Sequence record: MN342150
Source: Escherichia phage vB_EcoM_3HA11
Direction: 5' to 3' (one strand)
DNA: 64,000 bases
The notes below the pieces were generated by a model. That model saw only the letters and a program-made list of their open reading frames with translations. It searched no databases and was not told the DNA's origin. Positions within the stretch are counted from its first letter, which is position 1. Each line of letters begins with the position of its first letter. The translations under genes were made by a program, and so were the position numbers. Shown here one piece after another: positions 27,911 to 59,001 of this stretch.

Positions 27911-27925
27911 AGAGAGATCTATATT

Positions 27926-30124: not shown

Positions 30125-30547
30125 ATGAAGAAGTATATCGTTCTTATAACGGGTTCCCGTTCTATAACTGAGCGGGACAAAATATTTGCCAAATTAGATG
30201 AACTCTTAATCCCTCACGAGATAGAGACGTTTATTGAAGGTGAAGCAGTGGGTGTGGATCTGATATCCCGTGATTGGTGTGAAATCAATTATGTGCATAT
30301 CACACCAATGCCGATTCCTCAAAATTACCATACGTTATATGGGAAAGGTGCGGGCAATCAACGTAACAAAGATATGCTGGACAAGGCTCTAACATTGGCG
30401 AAGCAAAAAGATCTTGAGGTCTTTGGAATTGCATTATGGGATGGTTCGTCTACTGGGACGCAAGACATGATCAAGCGCATGAAGAAAGCGGGAATAAATG
30501 TCAATATCACTCTCATGGGCAAACCCAAAACCAAACGATTGTTATAA
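30125..30547 (+). CDS. SLOG/DUF2493-like Rossmann-fold protein (tentative)
   Basis: N-terminal KKYIVLITGSRSI and later GEAVGVD resemble the GSR..GxD signature of LOG/DprA-like SLOG domains. Confidence 0.3.
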   Translation: MKKYIVLITGSRSITERDKIFAKLDELLIPHEIETFIEGEAVGVDLISRDWCEINYVHITPMPIPQNYHTLYGKGAGNQRNKDMLDKALTLAKQKDLEVFGIALWDGSSTGTQDMIKRMKKAGINVNITLMGKPKTKRLL

Positions 30548-32728: not shown

Positions 32729-33184
32729 ATGAGTGAAACAAAATTTGAAACAATGAAGACCGAAGATATAATCGCGGAATTAGATCCTCTTATTTCGGTG
32801 AATCCTGAAGACATGAATTTAGACCAAATATCATTGAAAATTGGTCGTTCATGGATGGCTGTCCAGCGCCATTACATTCGTGAAGGGCGTTATCTAGAAT
32901 TTTTGACAGGAAAATTCCGTCAAATCGATCTTTATTTACGTCGGTATTATGCAGGGGAATTACCACCCAATATTTATGTCGAACGTCCCCTGAAAGTTCG
33001 CCCCCTGAAATCTGATATAGACGTTTGGGTAAAGGCTGATGACGATTACATTGAGTTATCGAGCATGTTGCAAGAACAAAAAGCCAAAGTAAAATTAATC
33101 GAAAGTAGTTTAGAACGTTTGAATAAACTCGGCTATGAAGTGAAAAATGCGATTGATTGGCGAAAATATTTGGACGGTATGTGA
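32729..33184 (+). CDS. uvsY: Recombination mediator, UvsY-like (tentative)
   Basis: 151 aa; segments YLRRYYAGE and LGYEVKNAIDWRKY resemble recalled T4 UvsY (RLDYYSG ... SRGFAIKHIQDMRAF); lies next to uvsW as in T4. Confidence 0.4.
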   Translation: MSETKFETMKTEDIIAELDPLISVNPEDMNLDQISLKIGRSWMAVQRHYIREGRYLEFLTGKFRQIDLYLRRYYAGELPPNIYVERPLKVRPLKSDIDVWVKADDDYIELSSMLQEQKAKVKLIESSLERLNKLGYEVKNAIDWRKYLDGM

Positions 33185-33930
33185 TGGTTTCCCTGCAGGC
33201 TTTGCGTAAACTCAATGATTTTGAGAACCGCCATTACACATTTCAGCAGTATGCCTTGCCCTTTAAGGAACTGACTTGTGTAACAACGGAAAACGGTCGC
33301 CATTATGTGTCTCCAACAGGCGTCAAACTCACATCTGTAACAACGATGTTGGGGCGTACCGGAGATCATACATGGTTAGAAGCCTGGCGGGACAAGTTGG
33401 GACACGAAGCCGCCGATATCGAAACAGAGCGTTGCGCAGACCGTGGGGAAAAACTTCATTTGGCCTGTGAATTATATCTCAAAAACAGGCCGATGAAGGA
33501 AGTGTTAGAAGCCGCAGGGGAATACGTGTTTATGTTTAAACAGGTCTTCCCCTACCTGAACAAAATGAGCAAGATATACGCACAGGAGATTCCGTTATAT
33601 AGCGAAGTCCTTGGTCTTGCTGGTCGTGTTGATCTCATCGGCGTTTACGAGGGAATCCCTAGCATTATCGATTTCAAAACATCCAACACCCTGAAAACTC
33701 GGAGCATGATAGAAGATTACAGCATTCAACTATGCCTGTACTCAGTCATGTTTCAACAGATGTTTAATGTTAAGATCGAACGTTTGGTCAATATTATATC
33801 TAACGAAAATTCTCTTGTCCCGACTATAATCGAATTTAATCGAAAAGACGTTATTTCTAAAATGTTTGATCGTGTTCGCCTGTATCATAAAATGGATAAA
33901 GAACAGAACGGGATCTGGGCGGATCGCTAA
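33184..33930 (+). CDS. PD-(D/E)XK superfamily nuclease
   Basis: Motif RVDLIGVY..(8 aa)..IIDFKTS fits the D..(D/E)XK catalytic core (YqaJ/RecB-like); TGATG start/stop overlap with upstream gene. Confidence 0.5.
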   Translation: MVSLQALRKLNDFENRHYTFQQYALPFKELTCVTTENGRHYVSPTGVKLTSVTTMLGRTGDHTWLEAWRDKLGHEAADIETERCADRGEKLHLACELYLKNRPMKEVLEAAGEYVFMFKQVFPYLNKMSKIYAQEIPLYSEVLGLAGRVDLIGVYEGIPSIIDFKTSNTLKTRSMIEDYSIQLCLYSVMFQQMFNVKIERLVNIISNENSLVPTIIEFNRKDVISKMFDRVRLYHKMDKEQNGIWADR

Positions 33931-33958
33931 ATACTCCATAATATTGGGGGAATTAGTG

Positions 33959-35464
33959 ATGTCAGAAATTCAAATAATCAAAGTTAACGAAGTTAGAATG
34001 CGGATCCTTGCCGAGGACTATATCCGTGAAGAACTCAACGATTATTTCAAATTTGAAGATCCTAATTTCCAACCAAATCCATTCAGTAAATGGGACGGCG
34101 TGGTACGCTTGTTCACAAAGAGTTCTGGTCTTATAGACATCGGTCTGTTGTTTGAGGTGTTTAAGTTCTGTAAGATGAATGGTTACACCATCAAATTAGA
34201 TCCCGCCTTAAAATATATCCAAGATATACCAGACGAAGAGATACATACATTTATCAATTCCCTGAACGCTGTTTACCGTGATGAAAACAAGCAATACCAA
34301 ATCGCAACAGTGCGTGACTATCAATTCGACTCAGTGGCCACAGCAATACGCCAATCCAGATGCGTGCTAGAAGCGGCTACGAGCGCGGGTAAATCGTTTA
34401 TTTTGTACATCATGGCGCGTTACTACAGGCAACGCAGAGAGGCACTGGAAAGCAATCTCAAGACGTTGATCGTTGTACCTTCCATTCACTTGGTGACTCA
34501 GTTGTATGACAACTTTGAGGAATACAGCCACGGGACAGATTGGAATCCGATGATGAATGTCCAGATGATATGTGAAGGTGCAACAAAGGATATATTCAAG
34601 CCCATAGTGATTTCCACTTGGCAGGGAATTCAGGATCAGCCCAAAGAATGGTTCCATCAATTTGGGGATATTGTTGTCGACGAAGTACACACATCTAAAT
34701 CTGAAAAGCTATCTTATATCCTGAACAACTGCATTAATGCTGACCAAAGATTGGGTGTAACCGGAACCCTCGCGAATACAAAGGTTGCAGGGTTGCAGGT
34801 CGTTGCCCATTTTGGAGCATACCATAAAATTATTACAGCACGTGATTTAATAAATCTTGGTTATGCCGCAGATATCCATGTCAACATGATTGAAGTCATA
34901 CATCCCATGGCGGATTGTATAGAAATGCATGGTGCTGAGTACCAAAAGGAAATAGAATTCCTCATAGCGAATGAACGTCGAAACGAGTTAATAGCCAGAA
35001 TGGCATTGTCTTTGAAAGGTAACGTGGCCGTTATGTTCGAACGCATTGACGCCCATATGATGATTGTTTATGAAATGCTTTCAGCCGTTAAGAAAAACGT
35101 ATTTGTCATTAACGGCGAAGTTAAGACAGAAGTTCGTAAACAAATTCAGGCAGCGATGGAAGAGGGTGAAGATATAACACTGCTGGCATCTTATGGGACC
35201 ATGCAACAGGGAGTGTCGATCAAAAAACTTCATCATTTGATATTGGCACACCCGAGTAAATCCTATATCCGTGTCATACAGACTTTAGGGCGTCTCATGC
35301 GCCAGCACTCTTCAAAGGATGTCGCCAAGATCTGGGATTTAGTAGACAACTTGCGTTACAATGGATTCTCGTACAACCATGCTCTCAGACATTCGCATGA
35401 GAGATATAAATTTTATCTTATGGAGCGACACCCTGTACAAATGAAGAAAGTGTCGCTCCAGTAA
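33959..35464 (+). CDS. uvsW: UvsW-like SF2 DNA helicase
   Basis: Walker A ATSAGKS, DEVH-like VVDEVH, and segment WQGIQDQPKEWFHQFG matching recalled T4 UvsW WQTVVKQPKEWFSQFG. Confidence 0.85.
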   Translation: MSEIQIIKVNEVRMRILAEDYIREELNDYFKFEDPNFQPNPFSKWDGVVRLFTKSSGLIDIGLLFEVFKFCKMNGYTIKLDPALKYIQDIPDEEIHTFINSLNAVYRDENKQYQIATVRDYQFDSVATAIRQSRCVLEAATSAGKSFILYIMARYYRQRREALESNLKTLIVVPSIHLVTQLYDNFEEYSHGTDWNPMMNVQMICEGATKDIFKPIVISTWQGIQDQPKEWFHQFGDIVVDEVHTSKSEKLSYILNNCINADQRLGVTGTLANTKVAGLQVVAHFGAYHKIITARDLINLGYAADIHVNMIEVIHPMADCIEMHGAEYQKEIEFLIANERRNELIARMALSLKGNVAVMFERIDAHMMIVYEMLSAVKKNVFVINGEVKTEVRKQIQAAMEEGEDITLLASYGTMQQGVSIKKLHHLILAHPSKSYIRVIQTLGRLMRQHSSKDVAKIWDLVDNLRYNGFSYNHALRHSHERYKFYLMERHPVQMKKVSLQ

Positions 35465-35465
35465 T

Positions 35466-35810
35466 TCATTTGTCTTGGTTCACATAGGCGGGGGTCGCCT
35501 CGCCTTCTTTGTCAGAACCGAATAAACAACCCATCGTGCTGATGCATTGTTGTAGAACTTCTGGATCCAGAATCTGGCACAACAGTTGTTCATTACATTC
35601 CAGCAATGGGACAACTTTCACTTCCCGCGCCTGTCCTTGTTGAATAATGCCGACATATAGACCTTTGGTGTCTGGCAGTAACGGGATCACCATCATTGGT
35701 GTCACAACAAACTTAGAAGTGCAATAGAGGCTGTGTAAGTAAACACCTTTCAATGCCGGACATGCTTCTTGTTCTTCCCCTACTGCATATAAACCCACGA
35801 ATTGTTTCAT
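35466..35810 (-). CDS. Hypothetical Cys-rich protein
   Basis: 114-aa ORF convergent with uvsW with no terminator between; may be spurious. Confidence 0.3.
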   Translation of the reverse strand: MKQFVGLYAVGEEQEACPALKGVYLHSLYCTSKFVVTPMMVIPLLPDTKGLYVGIIQQGQAREVKVVPLLECNEQLLCQILDPEVLQQCISTMGCLFGSDKEGEATPAYVNQDK

Positions 35811-36145
35811 ATATTACTCTCTTGTTAGTAAACATGACTACATAATAATTTCATGCTGTGTTTAGACCAAATAAATTATTTTGCTAGTTGAATAAAAATC
35901 GCTTTCTTGTTGAACAAACCGTGCGTAATATACGAGTTGTGAGCTTTGCGAGCAACGAGTATTATCACGAGCGAAGCGAGTAGACTAATAAAGAAAGGTT
36001 TATTAAAACAGAATACTATAAATGCCGTCAGGCATTTATTTATCGCGCGTAGGGCATTTTAACACTTGTTCTATAACTGCAAACACGCGATACTAATTTG
36101 CGTCAAACATGACTTGAACCCCACTATATTTTGAGGATATAAACA
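35811..36145. promoter_or_regulatory. 335-bp AT-rich non-coding control region upstream of the sliding clamp gene
   Basis: Contains TATAAAT box near 36016, hairpin aaatgcc-gtca-ggcattt (36021..36037) and several CGAG-containing repeats (tacgag, gcgag, aacgag, cacgag, gcgaagcgag). Confidence 0.4.
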
Positions 36146-36814
36146 ATGCAAGAGATCACTCTCTCCGAACGCACTTTACAACTGCTGGCTAACTTTGAAA
36201 CCATCTGCCCCTCTATCGTTCTGGCACCTGGTAAAAAGCTGCGCACCGTTAACGATTCCAGTACAGTTATCGCTATCGCTGATATCGACGAAGACTTCCC
36301 GTTCGAATTCCCGATTCTGGATCTCACCAAACTGCTGGCAATCCAGCGTCTTCCGAGTTTCAAAGGCGGTAAAATTGAAATGTCAGAAGACCACATTTTG
36401 CTGAAAGGTGAAAACTCCCAACTGCAATTCTGGCGTTCCGCTAAAGAATTGACGGTCGTTCCAGCAGACAGCATTGATCTCCCGTCCGTTGAATTCGAAG
36501 CGACGGTCACTCCTGAAAAAATGAAAGAGCTAACCCGCGCCTGTTCTACTCTGGGACACAAAACTGTTCGTCTGGTTGCCAGCGGCGGTAAAACCCGTCT
36601 GGTCGGTACGACTACGACTATCGATAATTCCAACGATTACACCGTTGAATTGGGTGAAACTGCTCTGGCTGATTTCGCTATGCCTGTCGACGTTGTTAAC
36701 CTGAAAATGATCGAAGGCAACTATGTGATCCGCGCCTGTGCTGAAATGCAGCTTGTTAACTTCCAGTCGGCTGACGGCACCATCAACTACTACGTTGGCA
36801 TGCAGCTGGATTAA
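36146..36814 (+). CDS. Sliding clamp (gp45-like)
   Basis: 222 aa; size and position directly upstream of AAA+ clamp loader; acidic. Confidence 0.7.
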   Translation: MQEITLSERTLQLLANFETICPSIVLAPGKKLRTVNDSSTVIAIADIDEDFPFEFPILDLTKLLAIQRLPSFKGGKIEMSEDHILLKGENSQLQFWRSAKELTVVPADSIDLPSVEFEATVTPEKMKELTRACSTLGHKTVRLVASGGKTRLVGTTTTIDNSNDYTVELGETALADFAMPVDVVNLKMIEGNYVIRACAEMQLVNFQSADGTINYYVGMQLD

Positions 36815-41088: not shown

Positions 41089-43110
41089 ATGGCAGAATTC
41101 AAACCCTTCGCAACAGCAGTTAATAACAACGTTCTGGCGATGTCCGCAACTGGTCTGTTCATGACCAATATCGATAAAGATGCTCTTTGGGATCTGTATC
41201 TGGCATCTTTCCCTGCTGGTACTAACCCGCTGTACCGCGAACGTACTGAACACGATTGCACCTGCTGTAAACAATTCATCCGTAACATCGGCGGTGTTGT
41301 CACCATCGATTCAGAACTGAACGTAATTTCTATCTGGGACAACATTGATCTGGGTAATGAATATGACGTGGTGGCTGCGGCTCTTTCCGCGTATGTTAAA
41401 CAACACGCAATCGTCGATGTTTATTTTAACGATTCTGCCAAAGTCGGCCTGTCTCACAATCACGAATCTGGTGAAGATGGCAAAATCCGTACTTACAATC
41501 ATTTCCATACCCAATTACTTGGTAGCTATGTTCTGCGTCCGGACGCAATCGCTTCGAAAAAAGGTGAAATCCGCCAGGCTATTGAATTGTTTGAACGCGG
41601 TCTGCGTGAAATTACTCTGGAATCAGCTGAAATCGTTCTGGAACTGATTGACCAGAATTCTCTGTATCGCGGCGCAGAACACAAAGCAGCAGTGAAGGGA
41701 TTCGTTGAAACCAAAAAGGCATATGAACAAATCCCCGAATCAGCCCGTTCTCTGTGGACATGGCATACTGGATACCGTTCAAACAATCATGTTCCACACG
41801 GCATCCGTAACACAGTTATCGGCACTCTGCTGACAGATATCAGCGAAGGCGTGGAACTGGAAAAGGCTGTTAAGTCGTTTGAATCCAAAGTTGCTCCGGC
41901 GAACTACAAACGTCCGACAGCGCTGGTTTCAAAATCCATGATCGAAAACGCTCAGAAAGAAGTTATTGCTCTGGGTTTGGAAGACTCACTGGCGCGTCGT
42001 TATGCGGTTTATGATGACCTGACGATCAACAACGTTTTGTTCGCAGATCTGGCCGCTCAGAAAGCGATGGATCCGTTTGCACAGCTGGCCGCAGAAGTGA
42101 AAACTCCGACTAAGTCCTTAGAAAAAGTTGAAGAGATCAGCGTTGATGATTTCCTGAGCAATGTTCTACCAAAAGCGCATTCAATGGAAGTGCTGGTAGA
42201 GAATTCTCATACCAGCAACCTGATGTCCCTGGTTGCTCCGGCGAACCCAGATGCACCTAACCTGTTCAAGTGGAACAACGGTTTCTCCTGGTCTTACAAC
42301 GGTGAAGTGACCGATTCCATTAAAGAACGTGTAAAAGCTGCTGGTGGTAAAGTTGACGGGTATCTGCGCGTTTCCTTGGCGTGGCACAATAACGACGACC
42401 TCGATCTGCATATGTTCTTTAACAATATGGAGCACGTTTACTTCCGTGATCGTCGCTCTATGACAGGTGCCCATCTGGATATCGATATGAACGGTATGGA
42501 TGGTATCGATCCAAACCGCGCTCCGGTGGAAAATATCATCTTTACAGATGAAAGCAAGCTGCGCGATGGTGAATACCGTTTCGAAATCCACAACTACAAT
42601 CAACGTGAAAAGATCGACGAAGGGTTTGAAGTCGAAGTAGAATACAAAGGCGCAACGCATCGTTTCAGCCATCCCGGCCTGAAAGATCAGGGGCGTATCA
42701 CTGCAGTCATCCTGACTGTTAAAGACAAACAAGTTGTTGGCATTAAGTCCGAACTGGCTAATGTTGATAAGTCTAAAGAAGTTTGGGGTATCAAGACTGC
42801 GACCTTCCAGAAAGTACAGCTGGTCCTGAATTCACCAAACCATTGGGATGGGGAGCAAACTGGTAACAAGCATGTGTTCTTCATTCTTGAAGGTTGTGCT
42901 AATCCTGAAGGTACTCGTGGTTTCTACAACGAATATCTGAAGCCAGAACTGGATAAACATCGTAAGGTTTTTGAAATGTTGGGTAGTAAAATGAAAGTCC
43001 AGCCGAATGAAAACCAACTGTCCGGTCTGGGATTCTCGACGACGCAACGCAACCACGTGTTCGTCAAAGTGTCCGGCGCGTTTAACCGTACTGTAAAAGT
43101 CATTTTCTAA
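41089..43110 (+). CDS. Hypothetical large protein (673 aa)
   Basis: Long ORF with RBS-like GGAAG; no confident motif (N-terminal HDCTCCKQF Cys cluster). Confidence 0.5.
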   Translation: MAEFKPFATAVNNNVLAMSATGLFMTNIDKDALWDLYLASFPAGTNPLYRERTEHDCTCCKQFIRNIGGVVTIDSELNVISIWDNIDLGNEYDVVAAALSAYVKQHAIVDVYFNDSAKVGLSHNHESGEDGKIRTYNHFHTQLLGSYVLRPDAIASKKGEIRQAIELFERGLREITLESAEIVLELIDQNSLYRGAEHKAAVKGFVETKKAYEQIPESARSLWTWHTGYRSNNHVPHGIRNTVIGTLLTDISEGVELEKAVKSFESKVAPANYKRPTALVSKSMIENAQKEVIALGLEDSLARRYAVYDDLTINNVLFADLAAQKAMDPFAQLAAEVKTPTKSLEKVEEISVDDFLSNVLPKAHSMEVLVENSHTSNLMSLVAPANPDAPNLFKWNNGFSWSYNGEVTDSIKERVKAAGGKVDGYLRVSLAWHNNDDLDLHMFFNNMEHVYFRDRRSMTGAHLDIDMNGMDGIDPNRAPVENIIFTDESKLRDGEYRFEIHNYNQREKIDEGFEVEVEYKGATHRFSHPGLKDQGRITAVILTVKDKQVVGIKSELANVDKSKEVWGIKTATFQKVQLVLNSPNHWDGEQTGNKHVFFILEGCANPEGTRGFYNEYLKPELDKHRKVFEMLGSKMKVQPNENQLSGLGFSTTQRNHVFVKVSGAFNRTVKVIF

Positions 43111-58487: not shown

Positions 58488-59001
58488 GAAACCATGATAT
58501 CACCTTAGAAGAATCTAACCGTATCAACTGGCCATCCTATCTGAATGAATTAGCGCCAGACGTCTATCATTATTACAGTGAACCCACTGAAGTTTCGATT
58601 GAAGGCGAAAAGGTATTGCTTCTCCCATGGATCAATAAAGAGAATTATGATGCATCTGTTAAAGCGATACAAGATACAGACGCCAAGTACTGTTTTGCGC
58701 ATCTGGAGTTGGCAGGGTTCAAAATGTACCAGTCCTCTGTATGTGATAAAGGTCAGATCGACGTGGCGCTCCTTTCCAAGTTCGAACGCGTGGATACCGG
58801 ACATTTCCATACCCGTTCGATGGAAGGTAACATTCAGTATATTGGGACTCCTTATCACCTTACCTGGGAAGACCATAAAGACGGGACGAACCGAGGATTC
58901 TATGTAGACGATATGAAAGGTGGGGAATTGTTTATTCCCAACAGCGAGCAACAAACGTTGTTCCGATTCATAGAATACGATTACACCCAAATGTCTTCCG
59001 A
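58488..59001 (+). repeat. Tandem direct repeat, copy 1 (514 bp)
   Basis: Identical to 59002..59515; ORF pairs 58550..59041 / 59064..59504 and 58578..58907 / 59092..59421 are offset by exactly 514 bp. Confidence 0.85.

Follow-up and report, generated by a model that had tools for sequence, protein, structure and literature searches.

Introduction

Tandem G·A pairs are a common protein-binding feature of RNA, the ops signal takes the form of a small hairpin, C-G(NN)A-G, in the non-template DNA, and put consists of two stem-loops. DNA mini-hairpins occur at the G4, St-1 and alpha3 primase sites, at RSF1010 ssiA and at the N4 hairpin promoter, and their stability as DNA far exceeds that as RNA (PMC13037366). 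In T4, the origins oriF and oriG are made up of a promoter and an unwinding element, oriE needs an early promoter upstream of gene 5, and the uvsW product removes origin R-loops (PMC3016281). ViI-like phages differ from T4 in having no MotA/AsiA system, and the 2011 paper on phage CBA120 stated that their early, middle and late signals and their regulatory RNAs were unidentified (PMC3184105).

In the present study we analysed a 64,000-nt stretch of Escherichia phage vB_EcoM_3HA11 (record MN342150, one strand; hereafter the window), in which an earlier note, made from the sequence alone, had marked the long gap upstream of the sliding clamp gene gp45 as a candidate origin, a multi-promoter control region or a small RNA. 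The gap holds a conserved hairpin-based non-coding element, for which neither an Rfam family nor a literature report was found. Like the mini-hairpin systems of the GCGNAGC/GCGNNAGC kind, the element consists of strand-specific hairpins in phage non-coding DNA, few per genome; unlike in those systems, tandem G·A pairs set the mini-hairpin on top of a longer stem, several loops depart from the G-N-A type, and the phage is a large dsDNA T4-like phage. A further difference, from N4, is that the annotation tables of phage Vi01 list no N4-type virion RNA polymerase gene; helicase and primase of the gp41 and gp61 types are present in these tables. The element resembles T4 oriF and oriG in having a promoter-like box followed by an easily unwound AT-rich stretch and in having several copies per genome, one copy stands upstream of gp5 as the oriE promoter does, and the window copy adjoins uvsW. 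However, the T4 origins have neither a common motif nor a need for hairpins (PMC3016281), and the window copy lies outside uvsY, with no skew shift. With phage structured RNAs and leaders such as HK022 put and lambda nut boxB, the element has in common promoter-proximal stem-loops, covariation, co-orientation with an operon and a possible pseudoknot, but its sequence is similar to neither put nor nut.

Results

Genes around the gap

BLAST placed the window in Kuttervirus (Vi01-like, Ackermannviridae). The 335-bp gap was 100% identical to that of Salmonella phages Vi01 and Maynard and Escherichia phage 241, and its counterparts in Agtrevirus, Limestonevirus and Taipeivirus could still be recognised at 74-81% identity. 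The features of the locus were:

32729-33184: uvsY-like gene
33866-35464: uvsW, adjoining the 114-aa gene
35466-35810, minus strand: ORF of 114 aa
35811-36145: ORF-free gap between the 114-aa gene and gp45
36146-36814, plus strand: gp45 (sliding clamp)

The gene order was uvsY, nuclease, uvsW, 114-aa gene (minus strand), gap, gp45, gp44, gp62 and a RegA-like gene, which is annotated 2 kb downstream in phage Maynard. The product of the 114-aa gene belonged to a PHROG of unknown function, and a Pfam search with it found no domain. As the earlier note had described, the flanking genes are divergent and uvsW is adjacent; the uvsY-like gene, which it had also counted among the neighbours, is actually 2.6 kb away, so that the analogy it drew with the position of T4 oriF fails. 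The gap ranked among the longest in the window and was AT-rich (GC 0.343 vs 0.447 for the whole window), both as first reported. The absence of a gene in it was likewise borne out: inside 35811-36145 there were only ORFs of 30-38 aa, none of them conserved. Indels of 1 nt and of 4-5 nt in other genera hit all three small-ORF ranges, which leaves no in-frame conservation possible, and we rejected a coding role of the gap because the small ORFs are not conserved among genera.

An intrinsic terminator after uvsW (35486-35505) sits within the 3' end of the convergent 114-aa gene and is also annotated in phage Maynard. In LIMEstone1, an HNH endonuclease gene (I-LimI) splits uvsW, and only the C-terminal part adjoins the region (L021, 1-790). 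Elsewhere in the window, two identical copies of a stretch of about 45 nt lie on the minus strand, at 58634 and 59148, 514 nt apart and in neighbouring ORFs, which suggests a local duplication. The gene starts at 27919, 29392, 38815, 48424 and 51347 share a Shine-Dalgarno sequence followed after 1-2 nt by CTATAT(C/T)ATG, which may be a common translation-initiation or RegA-type signal.

Conserved blocks and predicted promoters

We aligned 17 homologous regions and set the gap against the genes on either side, scored by codon position. In four or five genera of Ackermannviridae, the gap consisted of blocks that were 80-100% identical and of spacers at a neutral 20-50%, while third-codon identity between genera was 49-60% in gp45 and 31-44% in the left gene. 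A lack of conservation in related phages had been named beforehand as an outcome that would speak against a function; blocks are kept across genera. A metagenome scan for more diversity gained one close relative with the region. The gap is best explained as a compound control region with a conserved strand-specific structured element at its centre. Outside the hairpins, its features were:

35842..35870, minus strand: predicted leftward sigma-70-like promoter of the 114-aa gene, TTGGTC (35870->35865), N17, TATTAT (35847->35842)
35894..35931, plus strand: box shared by the paralogues, with an A-tract (35894-98), CGCTTTCTT then the palindrome TTGTTGAACAA (35900-35917), and TAATAT (35926-35931)
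35982..36017: fast-evolving AT-rich spacer, with an A/T-only hairpin TAATAAA/TTTATTA at 35986-36005
36044..36055: GC block CGCGCGTAGGGC, in other copies and genera CGCGCGAG(A/G)G
36066..36094, plus strand: predicted gp45 proximal sigma-70-like promoter, TTGTTC (36066-71), N17, GATACT (36089-94)
36096..36145, plus strand: gp45 5'UTR with Shine-Dalgarno GAGGA (36133-37)

Both predicted sigma-70-like promoters had invariant hexamers and a spacing of 17 nt, inside the accepted range of 16-18 nt. The leftward hexamers were kept in Kutter-, Agtre-, Limestone- and Taipeivirus with a varying 17-nt spacer, and the block that holds this promoter (block A) was 92% identical vs 44-72% for the neighbouring stretches. 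The hexamer blocks of the gp45 promoter were at least 93% identical between genera and the 10 nt between them 20-50%, and Miltonvirus had TTGCAT-N17-TATAAT in the corresponding part of its gap. Hence the multi-promoter control region suggested earlier agrees with what was predicted in silico, namely promoters in both directions with invariant hexamers and variable spacers. A generic promoter scan gave four matches in the gap, one of which overlapped the leftward -10 on the opposite strand, and none of which coincided with the plus-strand gp45 promoter. The promoters annotated in the LIMEstone1 gap are in-silico annotations only.

The gp45 5'UTR was 82-93% identical between genera. A structured 5'UTR was rejected, since no significant fold was obtained (z = -0.5), and the RegA-like translational repressor encoded downstream may use the 5'UTR as its operator. 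The plus strand carries AAACATGACT twice (35830-35839 and 36105-36114), so that the predicted leftward 5'UTR is complementary to the gp45 5'UTR over 10 nt; the left copy (35830-35839) is kept in Kutter- and Aglimvirinae, not in Taipeivirus.

Between these promoters lies the box at 35894-35931 (block B), 93-100% identical between genera, whose -10-like TAATAT (35926-35931) abuts the first hairpin, and which is a candidate promoter of the element as judged from its motifs. The palindrome TTGTTGAACAA within it (35907-17) is perfect, and a related half-site is found at the gp45 -35. The pattern A4-5 / N3-6 / TTT(T)C[AT] / N15-18 / TAnnnT matched the Vi01-equivalent genome at seven overlapping positions (1.8 expected by chance) that represent five distinct sites, three of which are the three elements described below. 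With just two sites beyond these elements, the box was rejected as a general early-promoter class. In Kuttervirus, no properly spaced TTGACA-like -35 was found in the box ahead of the first hairpin, which counts against the reading of the element as an RNA; in the gp45 copy of Serratia phage phiMAM1 the box reads TTGGAC-N17-TACTAT. The AT-rich spacer (35982-36017) had 25-50% identity between genera. In some Aglimvirinae, a 19-nt unit, TTATTATCTTTAATAAAGG, is duplicated or triplicated in tandem in this spacer (L010, ~990-1050; L037, ~1325-1365; L048, ~1025-1065).

Two hairpins with tandem G·A pairs

The clustered CGAG repeats reported by the earlier note are real, with five CGAG per 52 nt (starts at 35933, 35949, 35956, 35968 and 35977, plus TGAG at 35940) vs 0.09 expected and at most two, on either strand, in any other 52-nt segment of the 64 kb. 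What had been missed is that the repeats are the arms of two hairpins, in which CGAG pairs with CGAG as C-G, G·A, A·G and G-C:

35930-35962, plus strand: HP1, 33 nt, ATAC-[GA]-GTTGT-[GA]-GC-TTT-GC-[GA]-GCAAC-[GA]-GTAT
35967-35981, plus strand: HP2, A-C-[GA]-GC-GAA-GC-[GA]-G-T

HP1 has 11 standard pairs (10 Watson-Crick and the G·U wobble T35940·G35952) and two tandem G·A/A·G blocks. The core of HP2, GCGAAGC (35971-35977), is a mini-hairpin sequence and has the features that define such cores (GCGNAGC, GCGNNAGC or CCGAAGG; a 2-bp stem and a sheared G·A loop). Relatives carry GCGTAGC, GCGGAGC, GCGTTAGC and CCGAAGG, and the window HP1 loop, TTT, is not of the mini-hairpin type. AGCGRAGCGR occurs once in the 64-kb window; GCGNAGC as such is not enriched genome-wide (18 copies vs 16.3 expected).

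In ViennaRNA, HP1 and HP2 made up the MFE fold of the plus strand (RNA z = -2.4), HP1 also being the centroid fold, and the complement strand did not give this fold. G·U pairs of the hairpins are carried by the gene-sense strand alone, and on the opposite strand pairs such as 35940·35952 become A·C. With nine sequences, RNAalifold gave HP1 and HP2 as the sole consensus helices. Compensatory changes in HP1 were C-G to T-A at the apex and A-U to U-A, besides a change of U·G to U-A, and Miltonvirus has a matched 3-nt insertion in both arms of HP1. The closing C-G of HP2 was T-A in all Aglimvirinae, and its loop GAA was replaced in other copies by GTA, AAC, ATA, TTCA or a 20-nt inserted stem. Among the gp45 copies, 97.8% of cells paired vs 15-49% in slid-partner controls, and three pairs had double changes. 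Over all paralogues (19 distinct copies), double changes were found in 11 of the 15 modelled pairs, and at nine of the 11 modelled pairs of HP1; 0 of 500 shuffles reached the observed value, although the family-wide alignment was fitted to the model and therefore leans towards the structure, and the covariation reflects few independent events, part of them from this alignment. The invariant G·A-capped helix tips are probably a protein-recognition platform.

A third hairpin and the TATAAAT box

Downstream of the AT-rich spacer lies a further hairpin:

36017..36043, plus strand: HP3, ATAAATGCC-GTCA-GGCATTTAT then TTAT

This perfect hairpin, already seen in the earlier note, proved longer than reported, with 9 bp, arms at 36018-36026/36031-36039 that are 100% complementary, and the loop GTCA. 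Three of its nine pairs are G-C, and its plus-strand tail UUAU follows the stem end AUUUAU. HP3 is terminator-like on both strands, and an intrinsic-terminator scan called the minus strand. The stem is kept in Aglimvirinae with the loop GAA, and Taipeivirus has an A/T palindrome instead. HP3 is missing from the RNAalifold consensus and is not conserved in Taipeivirus and Miltonvirus, which again counts against an RNA.

The TATAAAT box pointed out together with this hairpin is present as TATAAATG at 36017-36024; its frequency carries no signal, since CTATAAAT occurs twice in the window vs 1.96 expected, so that the box alone is at chance level and was rejected as an enriched window motif. TATAAATG, carried by the 5' arm of HP3, resembles a T4 late promoter. 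A T4-type late promoter (gp55/gp33) is defined by TATAAATA about 25-45 nt upstream of the start codon of a late gene; the octamer at 36017-24 lies 129 nt upstream of gp45 and has G in place of the final A of TATAAATA. Aglimvirinae retain it as CCATAAATG, and Taipei- and Miltonvirus have lost it. Elsewhere, (T/C)ATAAATA was observed 25-45 nt upstream of structural genes (at 30543 and 12362 in the window and at 41887, 46689 and 48007 in Vi01, L176), and from its place ahead of structural and late genes the late promoter of ViI-like phages is probably T4-like.

Three paralogues per genome

Phage Vi01 and Serratia phage phiMAM1 each have three paralogous copies of the element, upstream of gp45, gp5 and gp6, and every copy is co-oriented with its downstream gene. 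The extra phiMAM1 copies came from an IMG/VR pattern scan and a covariance model trained on the gp45 copies; they precede a gp5-like baseplate hub gene and a gp6-like wedge gene. The model detected the Vi01 gp6 copy and the phiMAM1 gp45, gp5 and gp6 copies, and the Vi01 gp5 copy was recognised by eye. HP1 of the Vi01 gp6 copy is near-identical to that of the gp45 copy, and the Vi01 gp5 copy has no HP1. Across paralogues, the stems differ fully and complementarity is kept (GTTGT/ACAAC, GTAGTTC/GAACTGC, TATTTAT/ATAAATG).

The gp5 and gp6 copies of Kutter-, Aglim- and Taipeivirus have an extra module of three helices, all with compensatory changes, in which 97.1% of cells pair. Two extra helices of this module can coexist only in a pseudoknot and otherwise are alternative folds, as is typical of RNA. 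Each copy has an A-tract, a T-box and a TAnnnT box ahead and an AT-rich stretch after HP2; the -10-like TAnnnT and the upstream A/T boxes thus precede all three paralogues, with no -35 match in Kuttervirus. The AT-rich stretch (17-45 nt in all copies) begins at least about 45 nt downstream of the putative start and behind GC-containing hairpins. A GC block of the CGCGCGAG type comes after it in the gp45, gp6 and Miltonvirus gp5 copies, and in the other gp5 copies a covarying GC hairpin replaces this block. The gp6 copies have no consistent terminator, a further point against an RNA.

Similar hairpins in other phages

Distant Vibrio Ackermannviridae, whose gp45 is 33-36% identical, have GCGAAGC or GCGGAGC hairpins upstream of gp45. 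In Vibrio phage Kuja the element would be inverted relative to gp45, but with a model E = 0.036 this reading counts as no more than a weak lead. Many unrelated viral contigs carry stem-GA-GC-GNA-GC-GA-stem hairpins in pairs or arrays, often 4-8 nt after a TATAAT-like box and in some cases followed by T-runs (L105, L089, Kuja); these contigs were pre-selected by the motif, and the complementary flanks and the sequence context are independent of that selection. In IMG/VR contigs, some of jumbo-phage size, G·A-capped hairpins such as GCCCGAGCGAAGCGAGGGC have TATATA-rich DNA between them. Pairs and arrays of G·A-capped hairpins were located at:

L092, 12620-13190
L115, 1820-2400
also in L109, L095, L099, L058 and L063

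At three array loci, an OTKONC RNA (RF03053) match above the gathering score is found at a distance of about 1.1-1.3 kb. That viral contigs unrelated to these phages share the G·A-capped hairpin suggests a more general phage nucleic-acid module, absent from the databases searched.

Discussion

We consider the element to be a short structured non-coding RNA, or a leader, with its own promoter inside the multi-promoter region, and we give this reading a probability of about one half. An RNA fits best because of the strand-specific pairing with G·U, the possible pseudoknot, the co-orientation with genes and the -10-like box that abuts the first hairpin. Of the options offered by the earlier note, a small or structured RNA is thus the best supported, by two hairpins, by compensatory substitutions and by G·U pairs on the gene-sense strand. 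What we infer in addition is transcription, with RNA ends, a protein partner and a regulatory role. The box (A-tract, T-rich box and TAATAT at 35926-31) would drive rightward transcription from about 35936-35939; the transcript would open with HP1 and then HP2, with CGAG pairing CGAG via tandem sheared G·A mismatches, would next traverse the A/U-rich stretch, and would end or attenuate at the U-flanked HP3 or at the GC block (~36043-36060). The resulting RNA of about 105-125 nt could be a small RNA in its own right, or a leader governing read-through into the downstream operon, and the leftward gene and gp45 would be served by separate sigma-70-like promoters. Two further observations weigh against this RNA: with TAATAT as the -10, the outer stem of HP1 would be left untranscribed, yet one compensatory change is found there, and many loop variants (GAA, GGA, GTA, GTTA, GTCA) are exact DNA mini-hairpin types.

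The covariance search proposed beforehand, for a structured RNA, gave no Rfam 15 match on the element (gp45 copy, E<=10; gp5 and gp6 copies, E<=5; hairpins of the external arrays, E<=1). A literature search found no transcriptome or sRNA report for Ackermannviridae and no paper with GAGCGAAGCGA in this sense, and no description of the element was found in the searchable literature.

A replication origin of the R-loop or ssDNA-hairpin kind is a possible but unlikely alternative, in which each of the three paralogues would be an origin, T4 likewise having several. RNA transcribed from the box at 35894-35931 would invade the duplex, the displaced plus strand would fold into HP1 and HP2, both very stable as DNA, and the hairpins would hold the bubble open beside the AT-rich unwinding stretch (35982-36017), giving a branched site for a helicase loader and primase, with the RNA priming the leading strand. 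We retain it as a candidate for its mini-hairpin loop variants and because the order of promoter-like box, hairpins and AT-rich stretch in each copy, together with the three copies, resembles transcription-primed origins. GCGAAGC of HP2 and the variants GCGTTAGC, GCGGAGC, GCGTAGC and CCGAAGG belong to the DNA mini-hairpin family (PMC13037366), three of the five genomic sites of the box pattern are at these copies, and the element adjoins uvsW, the R-loop helicase gene. However, several loops are not G-N-A (TTT, AAA, AAC, ATA, TTCA), the cumulative GC skew has no inflection at 36 kb (a weak test for T4-like phages), T4 origins have no common sequence or structure motif (PMC3016281), and RNA is the better fit for the pseudoknot-like module, for G·U pairs being frequent and for every copy pointing the same way as its downstream gene. 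The literature yielded no Ackermannviridae phage with an experimentally mapped origin.

More speculatively, the three elements could be ssDNA-structure signals new for T4-like phages, folding in the displaced non-template strand as fixed entry points of the replication machinery, which seems rather doubtful. If this were true, they would be origins, or loading sites for clamp, helicase or primase; as loading sites they would also be built-in enhancers for the clamp-dependent late transcription of gp5 and gp6, and phages at large would use the G·A-capped mini-hairpin as a recognition module.

The element could also be an antitermination signal, in non-template DNA or nascent RNA, at the head of three long operons, comparable to RfaH/ops, HK022 put or lambda nut: a polymerase that starts at the box of the element would undergo modification at the hairpins and pass HP3-type terminators into the gp45, gp5 and gp6 operons. 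At all three loci the element does stand between a promoter-like box and a terminator-like hairpin, ahead of the first gene of the operon, and Kutter et al. considered that antitermination may time the delayed-early genes in these phages (PMC3184105). We nevertheless regard it as improbable: by eye we noticed no exact match to ops (GGCGGTAG) or boxA, the loops that a factor would read vary, the terminators are weak and not conserved, HP1 is too long for folding within a transcription bubble, and no candidate phage factor emerged.

Finally, an ordinary duplex-DNA control region of promoters and operators for dimeric proteins, whose inverted repeats would be binding palindromes and form no hairpins, would account for the sigma-70-like promoters in both directions with conserved hexamers and free spacers, for the perfect palindrome TTGTTGAACAA (35907-17) with its related half-site at the gp45 -35 and for the putative promoters that the LIMEstone1 annotators placed in the gap, but it is very unlikely because the stems of the paralogues swap sequence and keep complementarity whereas protein-binding palindromes conserve sequence, and because pairing is tied to one strand by the G·A and G·T positions.

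Biocontrol and therapy make wide use of Ackermannviridae (ViI-like) phages. The structured element, present in three copies and heading the clamp and baseplate operons, is a concrete and mutable target, and it is usable for studying the timing of expression or the start of replication in these phages.
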